Source: Minisyncoccota bacterium (lineage in GTDB: Bacteria; Patescibacteriota; Minisyncoccia; UBA6257; 2-01-FULL-56-20). From it: a stretch of DNA of 64,000 bases. A model generated the notes under the pieces. The model was not told where the DNA came from and made no database searches. It was given only the letters and a program-made list of their open reading frames with translations. Shown here in pieces: positions 642 through 50,865 of the stretch; within the stretch, counting starts at the first letter, position 1; each line of letters begins with the position of its first letter. The stretch spans positions 330,338-394,337 of the forward strand of contig DATJLR010000002.1 in NCBI GenBank assembly GCA_035509435.1. The letters are read 5' to 3'. The position numbers were made by a program, and so were the translations under genes.

Positions 642-671
642 AAGATTATTATAACACCTCAATAAAATTTG

Positions 672-755
672 TGCGCCGGGCAGGATTCGAACCTGCGTAG
701 CCCATAGGGCGACAGATTTACAGTCTGTTGCGATTGACCACTCCGCCACCGACGC
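672..755 (-). tRNA. tRNA-Tyr (anticodon GTA), class II with long variable arm
   Basis: Manual fold: acceptor GCGTCGG/CCGGCGC (one G-U), D arm, anticodon stem ACAGA/TCTGT with loop CT-GTA-AA, long variable arm, T arm GCAGG-TTCGAAT-CCTGC; CCA not encoded. Confidence 0.85.
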
Positions 756-2521: not shown

Positions 2522-2560
2522 TGGCGGACCACCGGGAAATCGAACCCCGAACTGCCGTCT
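2522..2560 (-). other. tRNA-like 3' fragment (T-arm CGGGG-TTCGATT-TCCCG plus acceptor 3' strand plus encoded CCA) with no matching 5' half
   Basis: Minus-strand reading ...cagttcggggttcgatttcccggtggtccgCCA; upstream 50 nt cannot be folded into acceptor, D or anticodon arms. Confidence 0.3.
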
Positions 2561-2654
2561 GTCGAGAGGGCCGTGATACCGTTTCACCAGTGGCCCCCAC
2601 TGACCAGCGAAATGTAGCACGCAGGCGATTAAAATCCTGTTAAACCTTTTCTGC

Positions 2655-6165: not shown

Positions 6166-6558
6166 ATGCTGCTATGGATGCAAAAAGATTTCGACCGCTG
6201 GAATGCTCAAAAATCAAAACTGAACAACGAGATTACCACTCAGTTGTTTAAAGAACGCGAGATCTGGTTCTGTTACCTAGGATTGAATATCGGGCACGAG
6301 CAGGATGGAGGTGTAAAAACTTTTCTCCGGCCAGTGATCGTTTTAAAGAAAATTTCTAACGAAATGTTTTTTGGTATCCCTCTCACGCGTACGCCAAGAT
6401 TTGGAAAAGAATATTTTACGATAATCAACAATCACGGCGTTGGGTTTGCCATGCTCTCGCAGGGGCGCACATTGGACGCCCGACGTATTAAATATTGTTC
6501 GGCGATTATACCAGAAGATGAATTCGAATCACTCAAGCTTTGTTTCCTTTTATTTTAA
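6166..6558 (+). CDS. PemK/MazF-family toxin-like protein (mRNA interferase fold), no adjacent antitoxin
   Basis: Core REIWFCYLGLNIGHEQDGGVKTFLRPVIVLKK matches the MazF/PemK signature (GDIYxADLxPxxGSEQxGxRPVLV); low-GC segment. Confidence 0.7.
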   Translation: MLLWMQKDFDRWNAQKSKLNNEITTQLFKEREIWFCYLGLNIGHEQDGGVKTFLRPVIVLKKISNEMFFGIPLTRTPRFGKEYFTIINNHGVGFAMLSQGRTLDARRIKYCSAIIPEDEFESLKLCFLLF

Positions 6559-27754: not shown

Positions 27755-28828
27755 TTATGAATGATATTCGAAGATCGGATCAAGTCGCAGCGACCGATGC
27801 GGGAGCGCGCCGCCTTTTCCTATGCGAAACATGACAATGATCGTCTCGCCATCCGTCCCGAACTCCTTTGAGAGCGTTCCGTACGCCTGTTCGATGCCGT
27901 GAACCTGATTTACGGAAAAATCCGCCGCTTCGTTGCCCGCGATCCGCTGATGAAAGAAGGAGATCGCGGTCAGCAACTGGATGTCGTATCCCCGGGCTGT
28001 GGCTGCCAGCCATGTCCGTTCCATGAGCCGGCCGCCTTCGATGAAATCACGCGGGGAATTTCCCTTTGTGACGACCGCCCCCAGCGCGGAGGAATGTTCA
28101 TAGAGGGCGGCATTCTCTTTTGCGGCCATGGCCGACAGGCCTATTGTGGCAAAAAATCTGCGCATGGATTCCTTCTTGAGGAGTTTGAAGGTGAATTCTT
28201 GAGGTGGTTTCAATGCCAGCTCTTTGACATAAAAGCCGCTTTTCGTGTTCAATGCGTCGTTCAATGTCCAATAGATATGCTTGAAGAGAAAATCATGTAC
28301 CGCCCGATTTTCAAACAGGAGCCGATCGCCGTAGCTTAGGGCGCCCGCGATCATCCGTTTTTTTTCCGCATCACTGACAAAGATCAGCCGCGCCGGGATG
28401 GCGGTTTCGGCCGCCGATCCGGCGATACCGCTTTTTTCCTCTTCCTCTAGAATGTGCCCCGCTGCGTACGCGGTCCGGTTGCTTGCGCGAAGAGATATGC
28501 TTTCATACAAGCCATCCTTTTTGATGCTCGCATCTTGCGCAAATTTGAGCGCTGCCGTGCAGTCCGTTTCCGCAGGGAGCGGAAATAGCGTTACATCGAC
28601 CCGATAGCCGAGCACAGAAGCGGCGATAATGACATTTTCGATCGCCGCGCCGTGGGACACGAAAGATCCGAATTGATTGAAATTGTACGGTGACCGATCC
28701 CGGTCGGGAAGGTTGTATATAAAGAGCGTTTCATTCTTAAAAACAAACCGCCACGGTTGGCAGTTCTCTCCGGAAGGAGCCCGAACAGCCGCACCGACCA
28801 TCAGATCAAGATCTTCCTTTCTCATCAT
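27755..28828 (-). CDS. Tandem nitroreductase-fold flavoprotein (SagB/McbC-type dehydrogenase-like)
   Basis: N-terminal nitroreductase signature RAPSGENCQPWRFVF; length and second degenerate half match the two-lobed SagB/ThcOx architecture. Confidence 0.75.
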   Translation of the reverse strand: MMRKEDLDLMVGAAVRAPSGENCQPWRFVFKNETLFIYNLPDRDRSPYNFNQFGSFVSHGAAIENVIIAASVLGYRVDVTLFPLPAETDCTAALKFAQDASIKKDGLYESISLRASNRTAYAAGHILEEEEKSGIAGSAAETAIPARLIFVSDAEKKRMIAGALSYGDRLLFENRAVHDFLFKHIYWTLNDALNTKSGFYVKELALKPPQEFTFKLLKKESMRRFFATIGLSAMAAKENAALYEHSSALGAVVTKGNSPRDFIEGGRLMERTWLAATARGYDIQLLTAISFFHQRIAGNEAADFSVNQVHGIEQAYGTLSKEFGTDGETIIVMFRIGKGGALPHRSLRLDPIFEYHS

Positions 28829-28829
28829 T

Positions 28830-30041
28830 TTACAGGCCGAACATTTTTTTGAACGAATCGGCGATATTCTTTCGTTCCTGGACGGCCGCCGGCGAGTGAT
28901 AGTCCGGAATCAGCTGTTCGTCGAGTGAAACGAGCGCCCGGTCGCTTTCCAGGGGCTGGCCGTTGACGATCTTCCTGACACAATACGCCACGGCAGCGCC
29001 GTTGATCCATGCCGCGCCACCGAGCTGTGGCCAGGAGACGATCGTCTTCCCCATCTCAAGAAGGGACGCCTGCATGCGTGCCGTAATGTTCTCGGGGCCG
29101 ATATGTTTGGTGATCGTCTTCCCGATGCCAAACTTATCAAGCGACCGCAGCCCTTCATATGTCACATCCCCGAGCCGCCCGTGGAAGAACGCGAGATTCG
29201 GGTCCATGTCATATCGTTCCACATCGACCACCGCGTTATCGCCGTTATCCGCGGCCATGACGACCGGCAGCGAATATTTCCTGGCTTTTTCGCGGATGAG
29301 GTATTTGACGGCGATGGTATCAAGTTCATCGATGATCACATCCAACTTCTTCGATCCCGCCACGAACTGCTCAAGGTTTTCCGGCGTCAAGCCGTCGGGA
29401 AAAAGCTCGACGGTCGCGTAGGGATTGATCTCATATATCTGCCGCGCGGTCACCTCGACCTTGCGCACTCCCAGGTCCTGCACGCCCGCGCGAACCCGAT
29501 TGATGTTGGAAAGCGCCAGCCGGTCGAAGTCCGCAAGTTTGATATGCCTCCCTCCTCCCTGCAGAACGATCGCTAGGGCGACACTGTTGCCGACGCTCAA
29601 TCCACCGATCCCGATGACGGCATCATAGAATTTTTTTTGCTCATCGTCATTGATGAGGTTCCGGTTGCGGGCGGTGCGCACCTTTTGAAAATCCGCATCC
29701 TCAAGAATGTGCACGAGCGATGAAAGCCACGGATAAAAGACCCATCTGCCCTGCTGCCACAGCGGCGCCACTGCACGTGATCCGTCGATATGTTTTGCCA
29801 GCGCATCGGCGAACCCCGGCTGATATACCTGCGACGGGTTATTGACGGCAAAGAGCTCGCGGATCTGCTCTTCGTAGTCGTCCCCTACCGTGCTGATCCG
29901 GCCGTTTTGAAAAAGCGCCCCGACCGTTTCACGATCTGCCTGCTGTCCAAGGTCAAAAATAGCCGGCTCTGACGGTACCTCGCCCCCTTTCAATTTTTCC
30001 TCCAATGGAGATCCCATGCAATTTATTTTTTTACGACCCAC
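28830..30041 (-). CDS. E1-like ThiF/MoeB-family adenylyltransferase with ~130-aa N-terminal extension (MccB/PaaA/TOMM-C-like architecture); no CxxC zinc motifs
   Basis: Gly-rich nucleotide loop VIGIGGLSVGNSVALAIVLQGG and ATP-binding motif KLADFDRLALSNINR (cf. DxDxVExSNLNRQ). Confidence 0.8.
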   Translation of the reverse strand: MGRKKINCMGSPLEEKLKGGEVPSEPAIFDLGQQADRETVGALFQNGRISTVGDDYEEQIRELFAVNNPSQVYQPGFADALAKHIDGSRAVAPLWQQGRWVFYPWLSSLVHILEDADFQKVRTARNRNLINDDEQKKFYDAVIGIGGLSVGNSVALAIVLQGGGRHIKLADFDRLALSNINRVRAGVQDLGVRKVEVTARQIYEINPYATVELFPDGLTPENLEQFVAGSKKLDVIIDELDTIAVKYLIREKARKYSLPVVMAADNGDNAVVDVERYDMDPNLAFFHGRLGDVTYEGLRSLDKFGIGKTITKHIGPENITARMQASLLEMGKTIVSWPQLGGAAWINGAAVAYCVRKIVNGQPLESDRALVSLDEQLIPDYHSPAAVQERKNIADSFKKMFGL

Positions 30042-31516
30042 TTTTGCTTTATTCCCGGCTTGAAATAGACCGGATGCTCATATTCCCAAAAGACGATGCG
30101 CGGAGTGACCTTTCGCGGCATGGAATTATAATTGTTGTGGTATTCGGCATTGTGCTCCATAAGCGAACGCACAATGCTGCTTGATACCTGCCGTTTTAGC
30201 GTTGCGGTCTGCCTGACCCGCGGCCGCGTTTCGACGTTCACTTCAAGGTATTCGTCGTGGGAATCATCGAATTTCGTGGCCATGGTGAACCGCCCCGTGA
30301 CCGACCGCTGCAGTGAACGATGCTCCAATCCTTCTTTGATATGTTCGGGATAAATGATCGCGCCGTACAACTTGGTCGAAAAATCGCTCCTTTCAAAGAT
30401 ATAGACGAACGGAAGGTCGGAAAAGTCGGCTTTTATGGCACGCTCCTCTTTTTTTATGTCGATCGCATGGAGCGCAAGCGTCCTTCTTACCTGGTCGGCC
30501 GAAAAAACGCCGCCGTGGTCGCCGATCGCATATCGTATGAGCGGAATGGTGTTATCGCCGGTCAGGGCTATTTCTCCGTTGACTGCTTCGAAATTGATGA
30601 AGAGCGGGTTATATTGAGCAAGGGTCGGTGTCATTTCGATCTCCGAAAAAAGATCACTGAACAAGCGCGTGTCCGCGCTGGCGCGCTGGCGCGTAAAGAT
30701 GCTGAAAGGGCTTTCAAAGGCCATTGCCCCAAGGTCGGCGCTTCCATAGATGTTGAGTGTGTCGCGGCACAGGTCTTTTATTCCCGCCAATTCAGCCACA
30801 TGCCTCCGGAATGTCTCTGTAAACGCTTCCGCCGCAAAAAATAGCCTGAGATTCATTTTTTTTATATTGATACCGCGCGCAGCCGCCTCTTCGAGGACAT
30901 CCTTCACGAACGGAGGATATCCGATGAGAATGGTCTGTTTGAAGTGCGGCGCGAGCGATGTAAACGCGTTGAAGATCTCCTGCTTGTTGATGCCCGGCGT
31001 AAGTATTGAAATATGCTGTCCGAGCCGCTTGCCCGCGATCTCGAACGCCTTGTAAGTGATCAGTCCGCCGATCCAGACGCCCATGCCAAAACCGACGATC
31101 ACAAGAGTCGGACCGTCCCCGTAACTGCTATTTTGTAAGAACGTTTCCGCGATAACGGAATACTGCGCGTCGAGCGTTTCGGTACGGGGGAAATAAAACG
31201 GTTCCCCGGTGGAACCGGATGTGGATGTCCATACTGTCGCGCCGCTTTTGAACGTCCCGTTCCACAACAATCTTTCGAGCGGGTACTGGCGCAGGTAGTT
31301 CTTTTTATTGGTCAGCGGCACCTTTTGGAGGTTCGCGAAGGTCTTTATCGCCCCCGGCACGATACGGTTTTTTTTAAGGAAATCCTTGTATGCGGGTATC
31401 CCGCGCGCGGCGCGATGAAACAGCGCCAGCGTGCGGCGCTCCTGCTCTTTTTTCCAAAAAGCGGACCGTTTTATTTTAAGTATGTTCAATATCCGTCCGG
31501 CCTCTTTGTCATCCAT
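30023..31516 (-). CDS. Phenylacetate-CoA ligase / coenzyme F390 synthetase-like adenylate-forming enzyme (PaaK/CapK family)
   Basis: AMP-binding P-loop-like WTSTSGSTGEPFYFP and overall PaaK-like length (497 aa); overlaps the ThiF-like gene by 19 nt. Confidence 0.75.
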   Translation of the reverse strand: MDDKEAGRILNILKIKRSAFWKKEQERRTLALFHRAARGIPAYKDFLKKNRIVPGAIKTFANLQKVPLTNKKNYLRQYPLERLLWNGTFKSGATVWTSTSGSTGEPFYFPRTETLDAQYSVIAETFLQNSSYGDGPTLVIVGFGMGVWIGGLITYKAFEIAGKRLGQHISILTPGINKQEIFNAFTSLAPHFKQTILIGYPPFVKDVLEEAAARGINIKKMNLRLFFAAEAFTETFRRHVAELAGIKDLCRDTLNIYGSADLGAMAFESPFSIFTRQRASADTRLFSDLFSEIEMTPTLAQYNPLFINFEAVNGEIALTGDNTIPLIRYAIGDHGGVFSADQVRRTLALHAIDIKKEERAIKADFSDLPFVYIFERSDFSTKLYGAIIYPEHIKEGLEHRSLQRSVTGRFTMATKFDDSHDEYLEVNVETRPRVRQTATLKRQVSSSIVRSLMEHNAEYHNNYNSMPRKVTPRIVFWEYEHPVYFKPGIKQKWVVKK

Positions 31517-41989: not shown

Positions 41990-42838
41990 ATGAAATACGT
42001 TTTCTTTGGAACGCCGAGATTTGCGGAGATCGTGCTCGGCGGCCTGATAGACGCGGGTATGGTGCCTACAGCGATCGTGTGCAATCCCGACCGGCCGCTC
42101 GGCCGGAAAAAGGTCATAACTCCCCCACCGACAAAACTCCTGGCCCTTAAAGCTTCGCCGGACATCGACATCATCCAGCCGGAAGCGCTTGATGAAATAT
42201 TCATAAAACGGCTTCGTGCGCTCGAACCGGATTTTTTCGTCGTTGCGGCATATGCGAAGATAATTCCCCAGGCGGTGCTTGATATCCCCCGTCTCGGCAC
42301 GCTTGGCACGCATCCTTCGCTTCTGCCTGCGTATCGGGGCGCGTCGCCCATCCAGTCCGTGATCCTTGCCGGCGAGACGAAAACCGGCGTGACCATTTAC
42401 CAGATGGATGCCAAAATGGACCACGGCCCGATCCTCGCGCAGGAGGAGATCCCGCTTGATCCGCTTATCACGAATTATCTTGCGCTTGAAGAGCGTCTTG
42501 CCGTCCTGTCGGGAAAATTGTTGGTAAAAACCATTCCCGCGCTTCTTGATGGCAATGTCGCACCGCGCGTCCAGGACGAGTCGCGCGCGACATTCACAAA
42601 AAAATTCACGACCGATAACGGCTTCGTGGAACAGTCAGAGCTCGATCCCGCGATCGCGGGCAATAGCGACAAAGCGGAACTGATCGTGCGAACGATCAAT
42701 GCGCTCAATCCGGAGCCGGGGGCGTGGACGCTGCAGAACGGCAAGCGCGTGAAACTGCTTGAAGCGCGGATGGACGGCGGCGCACTGAAACTGATGGCCA
42801 TCCAGGAGGACGGCCAGAAGCCAAGACGGCTTCTCTAA
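41990..42838 (+). CDS. fmt: Methionyl-tRNA formyltransferase
   Basis: N-terminal formyltransferase domain with [10 protein letters not shown] motif; def-fmt operon. Confidence 0.9.
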
Positions 42839-43452
42839 TTTGCCACAGCGAACTTTTGTCCCACCGCTTCCCAATCCACTACGTTCCACCACGCGTCGAT
42901 ATAATCCGGCCGCTTGTTCTGGTATTTCAGATAATAAGCGTGCTCCCAAACATCGAGGCCGAGCACCGGCACTTGCTTCTTCATGAGCGGACTATCCTGG
43001 TTTGGCGTTGAGGTGACGGCCAGCTTTCCGCCTTCCTCGCGAACAAGCCATGCCCACCCCGAGCCAAAGACCCCGCCGACGGCCTTCGTAAAATCTTCTT
43101 TGAACCTCTCAAATCCGCCCAGATCGGTCTCTATCGCGGCAGCCAGCGTGGCGCCCGGCTTGCCGTTCTTGTCCGCCGGTCCCATGATCGTCCAAAAGAA
43201 CGAATGATTGCTGTGGCCGCCGCCATGATTGCGCACTGCAGTACGGATATCTTCCGGCACGATCGTGTCAATGCCCGCGAGCAGCTCCTCGAGCGGCCGC
43301 TCGGCGATCTCCGGATGTTTCTCGAGCGCCTCGTTCAATTTGTTGATGTACGCCTGATGATGTTTTGTATAATGGATCTCCATCGTCTTCGCGTCGATGT
43401 ACGGCTCCAATGCATCATATCCGTACGGCAATTTTGGCAATTCATATTTCAT
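42835..43452 (-). CDS. sodA: Fe/Mn superoxide dismutase
   Basis: [23 protein letters not shown], metal ligands and DVWEHAYY motif. Confidence 0.9.
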
Positions 43453-43566
43453 GATTTTTTAAATTGATTAAATTTTTGTTAAAAATTGTTTGCAATTCTG
43501 ACCTGACACGACCATGATTCATTATACAATCTATTGCCGTGAAAAATAACCTAGAGAGAACTGCCG

Positions 43567-43596
43567 TTGCCGGGTGGACACAGGGCGTGGTAGAAT
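43567..43596 (+). promoter_or_regulatory. Sigma70-like promoter for tRNA-Gln(UUG) (TTGCCG, 18-nt spacer, TAGAAT)
   Basis: Hexamers 12 nt upstream of the tRNA 5' end. Confidence 0.35.
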
Positions 43597-43608: not shown

Positions 43609-43681
43609 TGGGGGGTGGTGTAATTGGTAACACGTCTGCCTTTGGAGCAGAAGACTTCAGGTTCGAGCCCTGGCCCCCCAG
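43609..43681 (+). tRNA. tRNA-Gln (anticodon TTG)
   Basis: Acceptor TGGGGGG/CCCCCCA, anticodon stem TCTGC/GCAGA with loop CT-TTG-GA, T-arm TCAGG-TTCGAGC-CCTGG; CCA not encoded. Confidence 0.8.
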
Positions 43682-43816
43682 CCTCTTAGGACGCAGTATC
43701 GTGCGTCCAGGGAGCGTCAAACTCCCTTATATTTCAGCGGATCAATTTTTGATTTTTTGACCCTTTCCGGACGCGGTATCGGTGGAAAAAATGTAGTACG
43801 GGTCGTGGACCCAGAA
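43679..43816 (+). repeat. Repeat copy A (attL-like): core CAGCCTCTTAGGACGCAGTATCGTGCGTCCAGGGAGCGTC starting at the tRNA-Gln 3' end, plus ~100-nt right arm shared with copy B
   Basis: Direct comparison of the three copies in sequence; core contains a perfect 7-bp inverted repeat GGACGCA/TGCGTCC. Confidence 0.7.
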
Positions 43817-43841
43817 CCAAGTATCAATAATTCTCCTTTTT

Positions 43842-44366
43842 CTAATCGCTTTTTATTATCTCAATAATTTTTCCTACTACGCCATCAAGGTCCCCTTCGG
43901 TGTTAACCGGGATCGCCCCCAGTGAGAGAAGCAACGGATCGTATTCTTTTTGCCACTCGATATTATCCTCCTGTTCCGCCTCCGTCTTCCCATAGCCGGA
44001 CTTGTTGACCCTCGTCCGCATCCGATGAACGAGCGTCTCGGGATTGCTTTGGAGTAGTATTATTTTGTCGAAGAGCGAGAAGAATTCATTTTGGTTGCTG
44101 CCGCTCGTGCTGCCAACCATGACGACTGCCGGGTTTTGCTCGAGCATCTCTTTCACTTTCCCAATATCGCAAAGCCGATCCACCGTATCGAACCAATCCT
44201 TTGAATGGACGGGTGCGTACTCAACCGCCATCTTGGTTTTCTTGTCTTGCCAGAAAAATACGCCGGGTACGTCATGGAGGTCGATGGCCTGGATCCCTTT
44301 TCCATTCAGCGCTTTCGCGATCGTGGATTTTCCGGTTCCGGCTATGCCCGTGATCAGGACTTTCAT
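43842..44366 (-). CDS. P-loop NTPase / nucleoside-nucleotide kinase-like protein (islet 1)
   Basis: Walker A ITGIAGTGKST at N-terminus, adenylate-kinase-like size (174 aa). Confidence 0.65.
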   Translation of the reverse strand: MKVLITGIAGTGKSTIAKALNGKGIQAIDLHDVPGVFFWQDKKTKMAVEYAPVHSKDWFDTVDRLCDIGKVKEMLEQNPAVVMVGSTSGSNQNEFFSLFDKIILLQSNPETLVHRMRTRVNKSGYGKTEAEQEDNIEWQKEYDPLLLSLGAIPVNTEGDLDGVVGKIIEIIKSD

Positions 44367-44368
44367 GT

Positions 44369-44917
44369 TCAGTCGACCAGTTTAGCTATTAAAGGGAATT
44401 CCTTATACGGCTGCTTGAACGTTCCCGACCCCATATGCCCTTCGCCGTGAAGAATGATCTGCGTCCCTCCGAGATGGTCGAACATGATCTTTCCTTGAAC
44501 GTCGCTGCATTTCCAGGGGTCGTTGTCCGAGTTGATGAAAATAATATCCTTTACGTGGGACTTTATGACGTCCCATTTCAGTTCGTCCTTCGCGTCGCTT
44601 GCTGCAGTTTTCGGCAGCGCCTCGGCGTATCCAGCGACGAGGATCGCCTGTTTTACCCGGACATCAACCTTTTCAAGGATATGCAGGATGAGCGCGGATC
44701 CTTTCGAGTGGCCGACGAGCACGGTGTCTTCAGAAATCGTGCCGTTCTTGAGGGCGAAAGGAAGCCACTCTTCGACGTTCGGTTTGTCCGCATTGGGGAG
44801 CTGAGGAAGCCATACGGAATACCCGCGAGCTTCCAGCTTCTCTTTTAAATAAGGAAACCAAAACTCGTCAGGGCGTGTTCCCATGCCATGAAAGATAATT
44901 GCGTTCTTTGTCGGCAT
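44369..44917 (-). CDS. Alpha/beta-fold serine hydrolase of the YdeN/RBBP9-like family (islet 1)
   Basis: Nucleophile elbow GHSKG, 182 aa, IIFHGMG N-terminal strand. Confidence 0.7.
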   Translation of the reverse strand: MPTKNAIIFHGMGTRPDEFWFPYLKEKLEARGYSVWLPQLPNADKPNVEEWLPFALKNGTISEDTVLVGHSKGSALILHILEKVDVRVKQAILVAGYAEALPKTAASDAKDELKWDVIKSHVKDIIFINSDNDPWKCSDVQGKIMFDHLGGTQIILHGEGHMGSGTFKQPYKEFPLIAKLVD

Positions 44918-44923
44918 AACGAT

Positions 44924-45673
44924 TTATTGATATCCCCCATCCACCTTGAGCGTCTGCCCGGTGATGTTGTTCGCGTCCTCGGAGGCGAAGAAAAGCACCG
45001 GCCGCGCGATCTCCTCCGGCGTGGCGAATTTTTTGCGGGCGATGCGCGCGGTCTCTTCGGCGATGAATTCCGGCGGGAGCAGTGCATTCATATCGGTATC
45101 CACCCATCCCGGCGCAACGGAGTTTACAAGGATATCCGGGGCAAGTTCTTCCGCTAGATTTCTTGTCATGCTTATAAGGCCTGCTTTCGCCGCGTCGTAA
45201 TCGATCGATTCGGGCGACGTGGTATCAACCCCGTTGGTCGAGGAGATATTGATGATCCTTCCCCACTTCTGCTTCTTCATGATGGGGATGACCGCCTTGG
45301 CGCAGATGAACGGACCGATGAGATCGACCGCCAGCATCTTCTGCCAATCCTCGACGGTCTTCTCGGAAAACCGCTTGTCGACGACGATCCCGGCGTTGTT
45401 GACGAGAATATCAACCCGGCCGAATTTCTCCATCCCCGCCGCGACCATTTTCCCCACTTCTTCTTCCAACGAGACGTCCGCCTGATAGATCAGGGCATGA
45501 CCGCCCGATGACTCGATCTGGCCCGCAACCTCCTCGGCCTTCCCCTTTTCCTTGAAAAAGTTAACGACGACGTTGGCACCCTCCTTACCGAATTCGAGGG
45601 CAATGGCCCTGCCGATCCCACGGCTCCCGCCGGTCACGATCACCGTCTTTCCTTCGAATCGCTTGGCATTCAT
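44924..45673 (-). CDS. SDR-family oxidoreductase, FabG-like (islet 1)
   Basis: TGGSRGIG, NNAG, catalytic YDAAK; 249 aa. Confidence 0.85.
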   Translation of the reverse strand: MNAKRFEGKTVIVTGGSRGIGRAIALEFGKEGANVVVNFFKEKGKAEEVAGQIESSGGHALIYQADVSLEEEVGKMVAAGMEKFGRVDILVNNAGIVVDKRFSEKTVEDWQKMLAVDLIGPFICAKAVIPIMKKQKWGRIINISSTNGVDTTSPESIDYDAAKAGLISMTRNLAEELAPDILVNSVAPGWVDTDMNALLPPEFIAEETARIARKKFATPEEIARPVLFFASEDANNITGQTLKVDGGYQ

Positions 45674-45717
45674 GGGTTTATAATAGCATCAGAGAAGCTT
45701 CTTGAATATACGGGCGG

Positions 45718-45874
45718 TTGCGAATCGTTGCCGGGCAGCCTCTTAGGACGCAGTATCGTGCGTCCAGGGAGCGTCATTTGCTCCCAGGTTTCATCGAATC
45801 AATTTTCGATTTTTTGACCCATCGTGAACGCGGTATCGGTGGAAAAAACGTAGTACGGGTCGTGGACCCAGAAC
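45718..45874 (+). repeat. Repeat copy B (attP-like hybrid): left arm TTGCGAATCGTTGCCGGG shared with copy C, core, right arm shared with copy A
   Basis: Sequence comparison; the shared right arm runs from ATCAATTTTcGATTTTTTGACCC through GTAGTACGGGTCGTGGACCCAGAAC. Confidence 0.7.
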
Positions 45875-45996
45875 TGAAAACAAATTTTCTTGGGAAAGGT
45901 AACCAGTTCCCAGTTCTGAGCGCTTTATAAAAATAGGAAAGGCCTGACGCAAAGAATCTTTCGATTCTCCATGTCAGGCCAGTTGTATAAGTGTAT

Positions 45997-46602
45997 CTAT
46001 GATGCGCGCTCTGCGATGAGCGAGTTCGGCTTGCGTAGCGCAAGGAGTCCGATTGCCGCATGCTGCACGAAGCACATGATCGGGTTCGCCAGATCTGCCG
46101 GATGTCCTTCCCACCGCAGTATCACTACCACGATGCTGAGAACAAATGCGAAGGCCCAGATCAGCCACGGTGCGGCCGGCTCGTTGCGAGAATCCTTCAT
46201 GACATTCCGATAGGTCGGGAGAAATCCGAGGATGTAGCATCCCTGAAGGATCAGGTTTGCGTACATGGCGGAATGGAACATCCACCACGCGCCCAAGGAC
46301 AAGGCTCCGACGACCAGGATCAGCTTGTCGGGAAGGTCGAGCTTCGATCCCCTGCCCTTGCGGAGCAAGAGGATGGTGAGGGTTACGAGACAGATGAAGC
46401 AGTCGGTAAACGCCACGACCGTCTTCACCCAATCGCCGCTCATCACGAGATAACTCGAGGAGTTGATCACCGTGATGAAGCTGAACAATGCCCAACTGAC
46501 GATGCTCGGGCTGGTCTTTCCAGCGAGCATGTCCTTGTTGTACATCACGAACGCGATCAAGAAGATCACGCTTGCTACCAACGTCAGGACCGTAGCCATC
46601 AT
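45997..46602 (-). CDS. Polytopic membrane protein, paralog family 1 of 2 (islet 2)
   Basis: Start at MMATV with RBS AAGGAGGGAG 6 nt upstream; clearly homologous to the + strand membrane protein at 47525-48136 (shared GK..P...SW.L.SFI ... AWW blocks). Confidence 0.65.
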   Translation of the reverse strand: MMATVLTLVASVIFLIAFVMYNKDMLAGKTSPSIVSWALFSFITVINSSSYLVMSGDWVKTVVAFTDCFICLVTLTILLLRKGRGSKLDLPDKLILVVGALSLGAWWMFHSAMYANLILQGCYILGFLPTYRNVMKDSRNEPAAPWLIWAFAFVLSIVVVILRWEGHPADLANPIMCFVQHAAIGLLALRKPNSLIAERAS

Positions 46603-46730
46603 GGCGACTCCCTCCTTTTCTGTGAATTTTGAAATGTACTGCCACTCCGTCAGAGGCCGCAAATTTCATTCGTGGACTCTGGTGAGTGGGCGATGCGACG
46701 GGGTTTATCCCATAGCATCGCCCGAACGGT

Positions 46731-47381
46731 TCAGAATGCGGAGATCCGCAGTCCGAACCCAACTGATACTTTTTTTGAACTGTCATTCAGGACGAAGAGT
46801 CCCGGCAAGAAATGCGGCGTCCGTTTGGGATGGACGAGAACCCAATTCTCGTTGTAGTACGAGCCGCCGGGGAAGATCCTGATGTACGACTCGATGTGCC
46901 ATCCGAGGTTTTTGCTCAGCGCGAAGGTATTGGTCCCTCCGGCGACGAGCAGATTATTCGGGCGTACGCCTTCGAAGCGGGGAAGCGCGGTGACGAACAT
47001 GAATGCCATCGGCTTCTTCAGCTGCGGGGCGATCGCAATCGGATTGATGCGCGGCCCGATCTGCACGAAGTGAGTGCCCTTGTTCGGTGCGCCACCGACT
47101 TCGGTATGCACCGAAAACCATGATGCCTCGCTTGGCGTGTAGATGATGAGATGATTCGTGAAGAACGGCTCGTAGGGAGCCACTTCTCCAAAACCATATC
47201 CGCTCATCCTCCCTGTCGGGATCTTCAAGCTCCATCCATACTGCGGATAGAACACCGCTCCGTCACTGCCCCCGAATTGATCGCTATACAGATGCAGCGA
47301 TGCCTTCGGGGTCTCTTGGGCATGCAGGCCCGTGGCTGCTACTGCAAGGGTTAAGGCGATCGTAAGGACAATGCGTTTCAC
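46731..47381 (-). CDS. Secreted beta-rich protein with signal peptide and C-terminal ...RISAF (aromatic terminal residue; beta-barrel-like) (islet 2)
   Basis: GTG start with GGAG RBS gives MKRIVLTIALTLAVAATGLHAQ signal peptide; alternating hydrophobic pattern; terminal Phe. Confidence 0.55.
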   Translation of the reverse strand: MKRIVLTIALTLAVAATGLHAQETPKASLHLYSDQFGGSDGAVFYPQYGWSLKIPTGRMSGYGFGEVAPYEPFFTNHLIIYTPSEASWFSVHTEVGGAPNKGTHFVQIGPRINPIAIAPQLKKPMAFMFVTALPRFEGVRPNNLLVAGGTNTFALSKNLGWHIESYIRIFPGGSYYNENWVLVHPKRTPHFLPGLFVLNDSSKKVSVGFGLRISAF

Positions 47382-47524
47382 GGCTGATCTCCATTTCTGA
47401 CAGTCTTCAATTGTTCCCAGACTGCTGGGAATATTATAGCATGTATATATTGACATTGTCAAGCCTGTGTGGTATGCTAAACCCAGCTCGTCACAACGAG
47501 TTATTTCAGCAAAGGAGGTGCGGC

Positions 47525-48136
47525 TTGAGCGCACAAGTGATAGGTCTCGTCTCGGGCGGCTTGGTAATCGCAAGCATCGTTCCCTACGCCATCCGAGTGC
47601 ATCAGGGCAAGATCCATCCGGTTCCCACGAGCTGGTTGCTCTGGTCTTTCATCGGCCTCGCGCTCTTGCTCACTTACCGGAGCGCGGGCGCAACCGAAAA
47701 CGTATGGCCAGCAGTGTTCGGGTTTAGCAATCCGACGATCATCGCAATCATGGCCATCTCAAAACGCGAGCGATGGAAAAAGCCGGAACTGCACGAATGG
47801 TTCTGTCTCATCCTTGGCGTTGTAACCCTCATCGCTTGGTGGTTCGTCCGCCAGAGTCAGGAGCTTTCGCAGTGGGCATTACTCCTTGCGATCGTGGCTG
47901 ATCTCTTTGCGTGGGGTCCGACGGCGTTGTTCTTCTGGCGTCACCCCGAAGAGGATCGTCCGGCTGCGTGGTTCATCTTCGCAGTCGGTTACTTCATCAC
48001 GATCTTCGCCATCACAGAGCACACTCTTTCGAATTACATCCTGCCGCTCTACATGGCAGCGGGATCGTTCACGAGCACATTGCTCCTGTCGGTGCCTCGC
48101 CTCAAACGCAGGATACCGCTCAAGGAATGGATTTGA
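47525..48136 (+). CDS. Polytopic membrane protein, paralog family 2 of 2 (islet 2)
   Basis: TTG start 7 nt after RBS AAGGAGG; homologous to the membrane protein at 45997-46602. Confidence 0.6.
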   Translation: MSAQVIGLVSGGLVIASIVPYAIRVHQGKIHPVPTSWLLWSFIGLALLLTYRSAGATENVWPAVFGFSNPTIIAIMAISKRERWKKPELHEWFCLILGVVTLIAWWFVRQSQELSQWALLLAIVADLFAWGPTALFFWRHPEEDRPAAWFIFAVGYFITIFAITEHTLSNYILPLYMAAGSFTSTLLLSVPRLKRRIPLKEWI

Positions 48137-48286
48137 CTCAAACTCAACATGGCCCGGGCAGCGAAAGCACCCGGGCTGTTTTATTATCGTGTCGTGGTAT
48201 GCGGATGATGGACTCAGAACTAAAAAAGATAAGAAAATGCCCCAGCTTTTAGCCGAGGCATTAAACGTTAGCGTGTCTTGCAATTC

Positions 48287-49102
48287 TCACGCTACTTCCA
48301 AGATGTCGCCAATCTCCAATCCTCCATGGTGAAGGCAGGCGAAGTTCTTGCCGAACACGACGCCCTTCACGGGAATGCCGGGAAGTGCGGGCAGGCGGCG
48401 ATACTTGCTCAAAGCGAGAAGAGGTTCTTTCCCATTCAGACCCGTCTCCTGATCTATTGTGGGAATGGGACAGCGGACGCAGAGCTTGCCCCCTTTGAGA
48501 GTTGCTTCGGTCGTATCAATCACGTCCCACCCATCTTCGGCATACGGATCACAGTCGGTCACCACGATGTTTGGCCGAAACCGATTCATCGGAATGGGAA
48601 CCGTTGTCCGTGAGTTAAGGTCATCCAGCGATGCTTGGGAGATGAGAAGCAGAGGATATCCATCCGCAAAGCTGAGCGGAATATCGTTACCGCCCCTCGG
48701 ATCTTCGCGCTTCCGCTGGAAAGTTGGATCGTACTGAAGCAAGCGACAAGGAACGCCAAGGTTCTTTTCAAACCACCTGGAAGGCCTGTCACCCATGTCG
48801 ATGCCACGTCCGACGCGACCCCAGATGTCCACTTCCACCTTCTCGCCCTCGCCATCCGAAAGCGGAATTATCAATCTGTCGTCGTAATCCGCAGTCATCA
48901 CCTCAAGCCACTCATTGCAGATGGACGTGCGAATGAGGCACATCTTAGGCACTTTCCTTTGCGAGAGGAATGCCCCGTTGGAATCGATCAGGACAAATTC
49001 CCGATCGTGTTCAAAGCCGGATGGCGTGAGGACGGCCCGATCAACCGGGATGCCCCCGCAGGATTTGATGGGGTAAATGTACAGTTCCGCTATTTTTGGC
49101 AC
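48287..49102 (-). CDS. MOSC domain-containing protein (YcbX/mARC-like molybdenum-cofactor sulfurase C-terminal domain family) (islet 2)
   Basis: N-terminal beta-barrel MPKIAELYIYPIKSCGG with conserved Cys, MOSC core, 271 aa. Confidence 0.8.
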   Translation of the reverse strand: MPKIAELYIYPIKSCGGIPVDRAVLTPSGFEHDREFVLIDSNGAFLSQRKVPKMCLIRTSICNEWLEVMTADYDDRLIIPLSDGEGEKVEVDIWGRVGRGIDMGDRPSRWFEKNLGVPCRLLQYDPTFQRKREDPRGGNDIPLSFADGYPLLLISQASLDDLNSRTTVPIPMNRFRPNIVVTDCDPYAEDGWDVIDTTEATLKGGKLCVRCPIPTIDQETGLNGKEPLLALSKYRRLPALPGIPVKGVVFGKNFACLHHGGLEIGDILEVA

Positions 49103-49175
49103 GGAGGCCTCCTTTGGAAAAACTAGCCGTAGAATATCACTTCCCTAAAGAAGTGGCAATTCAAAATTGACGGCG

Positions 49176-49233
49176 TTGCGAATCGTTGCCGGGCAGCCTC
49201 TTAGGACGCAGTATCGTGCGTCCAGGGAGCGTC
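49176..49233 (+). repeat. Repeat copy C (attR-like): left arm shared with copy B, core, unique right flank
   Basis: Sequence comparison; similarity ends after GAGCGTC. Confidence 0.7.
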
Positions 49234-49332
49234 GAGGCCTCCCGAAAATGTGTGACCCGCAAGCCACGTCCTGCCTGCGTCGAAAAAGTTCTGGACCGGG
49301 GTGTCCAGCTATCTGCAAGGTATTAGGTTGAT

Positions 49333-50865
49333 CTATTGCGGCACGGGGACACGCCCTACCGGTTCCTTTTCGATCTCCCCGCTACGCTTGAGCCGGCGGC
49401 CGAGCGCGATATATTTGCGCGCGGAATTCTTCCAGGAAAAATCCTGCGCCATGGCCCGCTCGATAAGATGCTCCCATTCGCCCTTGTTGCGGTAACTTTC
49501 GTGGGCACGGACGATCGTGATGAGCAGCGCGTTCGGATCGAACGGCGCAAATACAAATCCGGTCCCCTTCCCGTGGTGCGGATCAAAATCCTCCACAGTA
49601 TCCGCAAGACCACCCGTCCTCCGGACGATCGGGATGCATCCGTAACGCATCGCCTCCAGCTGTACAAGGCCTGACGGCTCGAACCGCGACGGGATCAGGA
49701 TCGCATCCGCGCCGGCATAGATCATGCGCGGGATCTTGTCATCATATTCCAAATGGACGCTCACCCGATCCGGATATTTTTCGGAAAGCTCTTTGAAGAA
49801 TTTTTTATATTTTGAATCGCCGTCGCCGAGGAGAACGAACTGGAACGCCAGGTTGTCGAGGAGCGGCTGCATCGTGGATTCAAGCAGCGCGAACCCTTTT
49901 TGCTCGCTCAAACGCCCGTTCATCGCGATCAGCATCGTGTTCTCGTCCTCCTTGAGGCCGAACAGGCGCTGAAGAGCCGCTTTGTTCTTGGCGCGCCCGG
50001 CAAGATGGCGGCCGCTGTAGCGGGAAGTGATCTGCGTGTCGGTCGCAGGATCGAACCGCTCGGCATCGATGCCGTTCATGATGCCCACAAGGTTCTCGCG
50101 GCGCTCCTGCAATATCCCCTCCAGCCCTTCGCCGTATTCTTCCGTGGTGATCTCCTGCGCGTACGTGGGCGAGACCGTGACGACCTCATCCGCGTACAGG
50201 ATCCCGCGGCGCATGCCGTTCAAAAAATTCATATCGGTGAAGAACGGCGGGATCGGTTTTCTGCCGAAATCCGCGTCCATTTCCGGGACGAATGACGGAT
50301 CGAATGTTCCCTGATAGCGAAGGTTATGGATGCAGAAAATACTGCTGATGCCGTTGAGGTCTTCGTCCTCCGCGTATTCGGTCTTTAAAAGATCCGGAAT
50401 GAACCCTGTCTGCCAATCGCTTGCAATGATGAAGTCCGGCTTCCACTTTGATCGCTTTACGAATTCGATAGCGCATCGCGAAAGAAGCACCCATCGCATT
50501 GTATCGTCCGCGTAGCCGTAGACGTTCGCGCGTTTTTCAAAACATTCCATATTTTCCAAAAAATAGGTGATGCCTTTTTCGTCCCCGGTGTGGATCATGA
50601 TGTTGGAAACCAGGAGACCATTCGGATCTTCCTCTTTTGGCGCGACGCGCAGCCGCTCCATATGCAATTTTACCGGGAACTTTTCCTGGTCCATGCTGGC
50701 ATATTTAGGGACAAAAACACGGGCGTCGCAGCCAAGCTCTCGCATCGCGCGGGGCAATGCCCGCAATACCTCTCCAAGCCCTCCTACTTTTGCAAATGGC
50801 GCTGCCTCAGAACCGACAAAAAGCACCTTAAGCGGCTTTTCCGAAGCCGGAAGTTTTAATTTCAT
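49333..50865 (-). CDS. glgA: Glycogen/starch synthase (GT5, ADP-glucose type)
   Basis: KVGGLGEV, VSPTYAQEI, RFEPSGL, VRRTGGLADTV blocks collinear with GlgA. Confidence 0.9.
   Translation of the reverse strand: MKLKLPASEKPLKVLFVGSEAAPFAKVGGLGEVLRALPRAMRELGCDARVFVPKYASMDQEKFPVKLHMERLRVAPKEEDPNGLLVSNIMIHTGDEKGITYFLENMECFEKRANVYGYADDTMRWVLLSRCAIEFVKRSKWKPDFIIASDWQTGFIPDLLKTEYAEDEDLNGISSIFCIHNLRYQGTFDPSFVPEMDADFGRKPIPPFFTDMNFLNGMRRGILYADEVVTVSPTYAQEITTEEYGEGLEGILQERRENLVGIMNGIDAERFDPATDTQITSRYSGRHLAGRAKNKAALQRLFGLKEDENTMLIAMNGRLSEQKGFALLESTMQPLLDNLAFQFVLLGDGDSKYKKFFKELSEKYPDRVSVHLEYDDKIPRMIYAGADAILIPSRFEPSGLVQLEAMRYGCIPIVRRTGGLADTVEDFDPHHGKGTGFVFAPFDPNALLITIVRAHESYRNKGEWEHLIERAMAQDFSWKNSARKYIALGRRLKRSGEIEKEPVGRVPVPQ

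Follow-up and report, generated by a model that had tools for sequence, protein, structure and literature searches.

A candidate tandem array of recombinase-less gene islets at the 3′ end of a tRNA-Gln gene in a Minisyncoccota bacterium

A 64,000-nt stretch of the metagenome-assembled genome of a Minisyncoccota bacterium, which belongs to Candidatus Paceibacterota (GenBank assembly GCA_035509435.1, contig DATJLR010000002.1, forward-strand positions 330,338 to 394,337; hereafter the window, whose own coordinates are used throughout) holds two very small gene islets of 1.9 and 3.3 kb between a tRNA-Gln(UUG) gene and the glycogen synthase gene glgA, with an identical 40-nt core repeat at the left end, at the junction and at the right end of the pair. 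We favor the interpretation, with confidence that is evenly balanced, that this locus is a tandem array of cargo islets which are flanked by attachment (att) sites and lack a recombinase, resembling cis-mobilizable elements (CIMEs), and which were either moved in trans or are fossils. A preliminary description of the locus, made from the sequence alone, had proposed that two related elements integrated successively into one att site. This proposal stands in part: the pattern of flanks, a family of modules that surround the core, the variability of the site among relatives and a permuted second copy of islet 2 agree with it, while an integrase, a free attP and a strict empty site were not found in the window, the databases and the relatives that we searched.

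The core, CAGCCTCTTAGGACGCAGTATCGTGCGTCCAGGGAGCGTC, occurs at 43679–43718 (copy A), 45736–45775 (copy B) and 49194–49233 (copy C), in each case on the plus strand and with no mismatch. Exact matching across the window, together with tRNA annotation by Rfam and ARAGORN, upholds the earlier report of these three copies and of a copy A that starts on the end of tRNA-Gln. No further core was found in the window with up to three mismatches allowed, nor was any further copy of the whole module described below recovered there with an nhmmer profile. The chance expectation for the core is zero, shuffled versions of the window being free of matches, and the three copies cluster within 5.6 kb, leaving the other 58 kb of the window without one. 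Each core contains a perfect inverted repeat of two 7-nt arms around the 6-nt spacer GTATCG (GGACGCA-GTATCG-TGCGTCC), which gives it the shape of a putative recombinase core site. Copy A begins on the final 3 nt of the tRNA gene (plus strand) if that gene ends at 43681, as called by Rfam (43609–43681, 64.9 bits), and ARAGORN places the end at 43683 (43609–43683), so that core and tRNA overlap by 3–5 nt depending on the tRNA end.

The core belongs to a module of ~170 nt, which consists of a tRNA-like left arm of ~20–28 nt, the 40-nt core and a right arm of ~100 nt, and the three copies in the window differ in which parts of it they have in common. A stretch of 154 nt, 84% identical, is common to copies A and B (43664–43817 and 45721–45874), and within it the right arms alone (P′ of A at 43719–43817 and P′ of B at 45776–45874, plus strand) are 81% identical. 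Copies B and C are 100% identical over 59 nt (45717–45775 and 49175–49233), which comprise the core and a 19-nt left arm (P of B at 45717–45735 and P of C at 49175–49193, plus strand). To the left of copy A is the tRNA, and the sequence to the right of copy C is otherwise unique. Taken together, the shared right arms of A and B and the shared left arm and core of B and C bear out the previously proposed order of flanks, with an attL-like copy A, an attP-like copy B at the junction between the islets and an attR-like copy C.

The genomic context of this site varies strongly among relatives. The closest relatives found, on contigs L087 and L092 (L-numbers are our labels for the compared contigs), have flanking proteins that are 80–93% identical to those of the window and flanking DNA that is ~81% identical. 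Both keep the order L9-CtpA-def-fmt-SOD-tRNA-Gln (SOD, superoxide dismutase) and both are without the module and the islets; the genes at the site are DLH, a 97-aa open reading frame (ORF), tRNA-Gln and SOD in L092, and KdpC, KdpD, tRNA-Gln and SOD in L087. Contig L096, whose glgA is 80% identical, keeps the frame from glgA to tRNA-Gln-SOD and encloses in it a glyoxalase gene, a 106-aa ORF and a RibD_C gene, and L007, L009 and L095 carry yet other genes near tRNA-Gln. The linkage of SOD and tRNA-Gln is kept in L003, L007, L087, L092, L095 and L096, and islet 1 genes are absent from the loci of the close relatives. Because L092, L087, L096, L007, L009, L095 and L003 carry different genes there, the 3′ flank of tRNA-Gln is a hypervariable insertion hot spot, and glgA is its native right anchor.

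A search with the 20-nt hairpin of the module gave no match in GTDB species genomes and matched four contigs in JGI metagenomes (L003–L006). In L003, SOD is followed by tRNA-Gln(UUG), a core that starts from the same tRNA base (CCCCCAG|CC) and a full right arm, 77% identical to that of copy A. The tRNA-Gln sequence of this contig is, by eye, clearly different from that of the window, and L003 has the copy A layout in another organism. Contig L004, from the same metagenome as L003, has the order left arm-core-right arm, like copy B; L005 has a left arm, the core and half a right arm; and L006 has just the core, preceded by a fragment that is similar to a tRNA-Gln 3′ end. The left arms in L004, L005 and L006 are related to that of copy B. 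Among the window, L003 and L004 the cores are identical at 39–40 of 40 positions and the right arms at only 66–81%, and the right arms of A and B (81%), although they stand in the same genome, are no closer to one another than arms from different genomes. A core that is near-invariant beside arms that have diverged as they do between genomes therefore suggests two independent acquisitions of the arms and a constrained core, rather than a recent local duplication. Beside the module, L003 carries as cargo a gene of DUF1254 type that has a relative in L005. Directly to the right of the core in L006 (1683–5527 of that contig), there are proteins of 202 and 1077 aa without a Pfam match, which may likewise be cargo.

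Islet 2 has a counterpart elsewhere. Contigs L103 and L104 carry all four of its genes at 94–98% protein identity (96% for the 216-aa protein described below), adjoining the mraZ-rsmH-ftsL-PBP-mur (dcw) cell-division cluster, and have neither tRNA-Gln nor a module at that place; L105 and L106, which hold more distant homologues of the 216-aa protein, do not keep the islet 2 neighborhood. The DNA similarity to L103 falls into two segments, X (45928–48194, genes on both strands; 93.7% identical to L103 11452–9187) and Y (48234–49160, minus strand; 88.6% identical to L103 12645–11717). Their order in L103 is Y, a 264-nt unrelated spacer and X, and in the window X, a 39-nt junction and Y, such that the two arrangements are circular permutations of each other. 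The homology with L103 begins 54 nt beyond the right arm of copy B and runs to within 15 nt of the left arm of copy C, and the break point of the permutation in the window falls exactly where the modules stand. Such a permutation is compatible with a circular intermediate that was opened at different places, or with two cassettes that move independently. Islet 2 may thus comprise two units, 45928–48194 and 48234–49160, in which case the array would have three. The X-Y junction (48195–48233, plus strand), delimited from the sequence and the boundary of the L103 alignment, carries the motif GTCGTGG..GGACTCAGAACT, which is similar to the end of a right arm and might conceivably be the remnant of a fourth module. 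The spacer in L103 (11453–11716) is GC-rich and hairpin-rich, lies between the homologues of the first membrane protein gene and the MOSC gene, where the window has a module, and has no Rfam match. Direct repeats around this permuted copy or around the cargo of L096 were also sought, and none was seen beyond A-rich terminator tails.

The seven-gene content of the two islets, as given in the preliminary description, was confirmed by ORF and Pfam analysis, as was the lack of a recombinase, none of the seven genes matching a Pfam recombinase family. Without such a gene in the islets, the enzyme must act in trans, or the islets are fossils. We infer that the recombination was site-specific and not homologous, that it crossed over within the inverted repeat and that an enzyme acted in trans. 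Circular forms carrying left arm, core and right arm would recombine inside the core with a resident copy beside the tRNA, and two successive integrations of this kind would yield tRNA-core-right arm, left arm-core-right arm and left arm-core-native flank. The recombinase would be supplied from elsewhere in the genome or by a visiting element; alternatively, the islets may now be fixed as fossils. Two Logan contigs of 2057 and 3458 nt have lengths that equal the repeat spacings. They were rejected as circular forms, their ends (43690–45746 and 45747–49204) lying where unitigs built with k = 31 must break at repeats.

Several observations weigh against this interpretation. Only 3–5 of the 40 core nucleotides are tRNA sequence, and an identity overlap this short is unusual among tRNA-targeting integrases. 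No recombinase was detected among 40 ORFs of the window scanned against Pfam (~47 of its ~60 gene-sized ORFs being accounted for by Pfam or by eye), none was recognized on the module-bearing contigs L003–L006, and our view of the source genome is confined to the 64-kb window of a 439-kb contig. The islets contain no backbone remnants. The module has no match among INPHARED phages, PLSDB plasmids or IMG/VR, and the free attP-bearing element or integrase of this specificity that the preliminary description had suggested looking for was not found in searches of phages, plasmids, viruses, GTDB genomes and JGI metagenomes, which returned no integrase-bearing element with this core. The composition of the islets, which had been suggested as a further check, sets only one of them apart: islet 2 is a tetranucleotide outlier in the window, with no background window as distant, whereas islet 1 is not an outlier and the GC content of both equals that of the backbone.

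The comparison with relatives adds to these points. An empty site, in the form of tRNA-Gln directly joined to the core and the right flank of copy C, was not present in any of the related genomes; the tRNA trailers without the module are free of the core hairpin as well, and therefore the seemingly native core at copy C may itself derive from an element. The preliminary description had named the presence of the same seven genes without repeats in another context as an observation that would speak against it, and this was made for four of the seven genes (L103 and L104, 94–98% protein identity); the cargo is therefore not tied to the repeats. Finally, both the tRNA-Gln of the window and the TTGCCG...TAGAAT promoter before it are similar to their counterparts in L096 and L009, which are more distant, the tRNA-Gln sequences of L087 and L092 are different, and an older promoter-like site, CTGACA...TACAAT, remains upstream of the gene (43503–43530). 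This suggests that the tRNA gene itself was replaced in the lineage of the window, and larger replacements by homologous recombination have therefore also shaped the locus.

The structure of the module bears on what it could otherwise be. The left arm of copies B and C, GTTGCGAATCGTTGCCGGG, resembles a tRNA T-arm and acceptor strand and matches those of tRNA-Gln at 10 of 19 positions, counted on an ungapped alignment. A motif scan finds the half-site, GGACGC(A/G)G / GGACCCAG, at two further places in the right arm of A and at one in the right arm of B. A second hairpin, GGGAG(C)...(G)CTCCC, spans the boundary between core and right arm and is closed even in copy C despite its unrelated flank. 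In copy A, the right arm closes this hairpin and continues with an AT-rich hairpin and a T-run, two more GGACGC/GGACCC motifs and the end GTCGTGGACCCAGAAC, and a promoter and terminator scan placed a terminator-like site at 43709–43727. For the minus-strand genes of the islets, the last part of a right arm or the native flank serves as terminator region, and the islets have promoters of their own according to a consensus scan. The module has no Rfam match at gathering thresholds or at E ≤ 10, its folding z-scores are −1.8 and −2.2, and folding of the module alignment gave a covariation term of −1.25 kcal/mol with compensatory changes in two of 30 predicted pairs. Its ends are not inverted repeats.

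Several other identities for the module or its parts were tried and rejected. A structured RNA family was set aside for want of an Rfam match and with almost no covariation. A, B and L003 have one uninterrupted reading frame across the module, and a small protein gene was rejected on account of the missing third-position bias ([4,9,5], [7,8,8] and [7,9,5]) and a frameshift in L004. The left arm (CGTTGCCGGG) and the tRNA promoter agree over 10 nt, which is taken as coincidence, the promoter being present also in L096 and L009, which have no module. Ends of IS200/IS605-like or other transposons do not fit junctions that hold a single shared core rather than abutted right and left ends. An origin from a phage or plasmid was dismissed in view of the INPHARED, PLSDB and IMG/VR results given above.

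Three rival explanations merit consideration. Cassette exchange driven by homology, in which the module would serve as portable homology for RecA-dependent swaps (e.g., after DNA uptake) with no dedicated recombinase, is in our estimate unlikely and nonetheless a serious rival. It agrees with the searches that found no recombinase and with the larger replacements at the locus, where tRNA and promoter are unlike those of the closest relatives. Moreover, the arms are ~80% identical, so that the perfect core, as the only long identical stretch, would alone be long enough at 40 nt for efficient exchange and would confine crossovers to itself. Homology as such, however, leaves unexplained why the core is near-invariant when arms and flanking genes have diverged by ~20%, why the 7-6-7 inverted repeat has a half-site that recurs in the right arm, and why in two organisms one and the same tRNA base marks the start of the module.

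Alternatively, the module could be a functional element of intergenic DNA, such as a tRNA-trailer or terminator-promoter cassette, a protein-binding site or a small structured RNA, that lies by chance between accessory operons. Its hairpins and terminator-like features on both strands, the preservation of the second hairpin through G-U changes and opposite the unrelated flank of copy C, and the location of the copies in intergenic spacers beside promoters of downstream operons are what such an element would lead one to expect. We nevertheless judge it to be quite improbable, given the weak folding statistics and lack of an Rfam match reported above, an orientation relative to the neighboring genes that is inconsistent among the window, L004 and L005, the restriction of the module to three clustered copies at a break in synteny with none in the other 58 kb, and its absence from close relatives that have the same tRNA-SOD context. 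A third possibility is that the tRNA-Gln trailer was duplicated locally as a segment and then diverged, the islets being ordinary chromosomal genes which were never mobile. This would account for a GC content equal to the backbone, for an islet 1 that is no compositional outlier and for the absence of mobility genes among those found. This explanation is very improbable: the right arms of A and B have diverged like those of different genomes while the cores are identical, relatives have no islet genes at the site, and islet 2 exists elsewhere in permuted form at 89–94% identity as against ~81% for the flanking core genes of the nearest relatives, a comparison that has no core-gene yardstick for the L103 organism.

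A bolder form of the trans-mobilization interpretation, which we regard as quite doubtful, is that recombination takes place at the ~170-nt module within a hitherto undescribed cassette system of Paceibacterota, which belong to the Candidate Phyla Radiation (CPR), with a recombinase, encoded on the chromosome or otherwise acting in trans, that would recognize the invariant 7-6-7 core and the repeated half-sites of the right arm. Small, self-expressed cassettes of one to four genes without mobility genes would then enter the genome at the tRNA-Gln 3′ end, leave it as circles and be reshuffled there. If true, such a system would stand functionally between an integron and an array of integrative mobile elements exploiting Xer (IMEX), and would be a main route of gene flux in minimal genomes. 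The genomes of CPR bacteria (Patescibacteria) are very small, and the ways in which these bacteria acquire and shed accessory genes are poorly understood. The tRNA-Gln-linked module, present in several genomes of Paceibacterota, provides a sequence handle for tracing gene flux, in the form of the invariant TTAGGACGCAGTATCGTGCGTCCAGGGAGCGTC, which marks a site where the cargo differs in every relative and could also serve in the hunt for the recombinase. Should the islets of the window move in trans, they would show that cassettes without an integrase are able to persist and to shuffle in genomes as small as these; should they be fossils, the locus would be an ordinary array of decayed islands.

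The array is framed on the left by an Fe/Mn superoxide dismutase gene (42835–43452, minus strand; Pfam Sod_Fe_N and Sod_Fe_C), followed by the promoter-like site of tRNA-Gln (43567–43596, plus strand; TTGCCG, an 18-nt spacer and TAGAAT in a consensus scan) and by the tRNA gene itself, the target gene at the left end. Islet 1 is a minus-strand operon (43842–45673) in which Pfam identifies an AAA_18 kinase (43842–44366), a Ser_hydrolase (44369–44917) and a short-chain dehydrogenase/reductase (44924–45673). In islet 2, segment X encodes a membrane protein (45997–46602, minus strand), a secreted 216-aa protein ending in Phe (46731–47381, minus strand) and a second membrane protein on the plus strand (47525–48136) that is a paralog of the first (23% identical, E = 7e-9). 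Segment Y encodes a MOSC-domain protein (48287–49102, minus strand; Pfam) with its own promoter (49159–49131) and terminator (48262–48236). The right flank of copy C (49234–49332), otherwise unrelated to the right arms, closes the second hairpin (CTCCC) and contains the glgA terminator (49308–49291, minus strand), and glgA itself follows at 49333–50865 (minus strand; Pfam Glyco_transf_5). The 216-aa protein is beta-rich and has the C-terminal Phe of outer-membrane proteins, yet its host is a CPR bacterium; it has no Pfam match and only ~20 homologous clusters among 5.8 billion proteins.

Other features were observed elsewhere in the window. An exact 19-nt direct repeat, ATCCTGCCCGGCGCACAAA (minus strand), occurs at 87–105 and 668–686, 581 nt apart, and covers the T-arm and acceptor 3′ end of tRNA-Tyr (671–755, minus strand) plus 3 nt. 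Between its copies lies one ORF for a small membrane protein, with a strong terminator hairpin after the distal copy, and from its sequence the interval 87–686 looks like a second tiny integrase-less islet at a tRNA 3′ end, which counts in favor of the interpretation given to the tRNA-Gln locus. At 2522–2596 (minus strand), ARAGORN called a tRNA with a four-base anticodon (cgac) that has no Rfam call at the gathering threshold and is either a false positive or an odd tRNA. Nitroreductase-like, ThiF-like and unannotated 497-aa proteins are encoded beside a histidine kinase at 27755–31516 (minus strand) and may form a peptide-modification cluster, and a PemK/MazF-like toxin ORF (6166–6558, plus strand; Pfam E = 4e-5) lies beside scpA/scpB.

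Measured against the definition of tRNA-integrated genomic islands used for Islander (PMC4383910), the locus has an intact tRNA gene at one end, tRNA-Gln(UUG) with 64.9 bits, and the islets and module are absent at the kept tRNA-Gln-SOD site in L092, L087, L096 and L007. As to a displaced tRNA 3′ fragment at the far end, a direct repeat is present there, with only 3–5 of 40 nt from the tRNA, and the left arms of B and C match the tRNA at only 10 of 19 positions; no integrase was detected inside the island (seven islet genes) or among the 40 window ORFs scanned against Pfam. The locus does not fit an integron cassette array, in which attI and an IntI integrase stand at the head, attC sites have the 7-nt core RYYYAAC / GTTRRRY, and the cassettes are mostly single ORFs without promoters and in one orientation. 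No integrase was detected here among the ORFs scanned, the stretch common to the junctions is 40 nt long instead of 7, and the islets carry three or four genes in mixed orientation with promoters of their own. Nor does it behave as a dispersed repeat of the repetitive extragenic palindrome (REP) or miniature inverted-repeat transposable element (MITE) kind, which the preliminary description had raised as the alternative: there are three clustered copies in 64 kb, four JGI loci and none in GTDB, where many dispersed copies with terminal inverted repeats or target duplications would be expected, and the ends of the module are not inverted repeats.

IMEX have no recombinase of their own, form tandem arrays and carry a short site of two inverted arms around a 6-nt center, on which the host XerC/D enzymes act in trans at dif, at the replication terminus. 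The array described here is similarly recombinase-less and tandem, and its short site likewise has inverted arms around a 6-nt center; it differs in that the site lies beside a tRNA gene and not at a switch in GC skew. A terminus dif site was rejected, as there is no GC-skew switch at 43–49 kb. To our knowledge, the core is also unlike the known dif sequences, and we know of no dif site with a one-sided arm of ~100 nt.

CIMEs and site-specific accretion at tRNA genes have been reviewed, for example for the ICESt1-related elements of streptococci, and the mobilization of CIMEs depends on the integrase of another element (PMC5704250). As in CIMEs, attL and attR are retained here and genes for integration and transfer are missing, the elements stand in tandem at a tRNA 3′ end, and a hybrid att site separates neighbors. 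In contrast to CIMEs, no related integrative and conjugative element (ICE) or integrative and mobilizable element (IME) with the same att site is known, and none was found in the viral, phage, plasmid, GTDB and JGI searches; the islets are also very small (1.9 and 3.3 kb) and have no decayed backbone, their identity block lies almost wholly outside the tRNA, and their host belongs to the CPR. Similarly, in Dehalococcoides, islands stand in tandem at ssrA, and some units without an integration module have been proposed to be cis-mobilizable (PMC3146451). Both systems form a row downstream of a small RNA gene with direct repeats at its 3′ end and extra conserved sequence around the repeat. Most of the Dehalococcoides islands, however, have a module with a CcrB-like serine recombinase, which neither islet here has, and their repeat is a 20-bp piece of ssrA rather than 40 nt that are mostly trailer.

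The tRNA islands of Prochlorococcus, which are shaped by tycheposons and have partial-tRNA repeats, provide a further parallel in streamlined genomes (bioRxiv 10.1101/2020.12.28.424599). There too, flexible genes accumulate beside particular tRNAs, successive integrations are split by repeats, there of partial tRNAs, and integrase-less remnants occur, whereas tycheposons are defined by tyrosine or serine recombinases and replication modules of their own, none of which is present in the islets. Structures of this kind are thus known as such, and we found no published description of integrase-less tandem tRNA islets in Paceibacterota. New here are the host phylum, cassettes that are very small and "clean", the position of the identity block, nearly all of which lies in the tRNA trailer, and a conserved module of ~170 nt that stands without an integrase in the contexts seen.

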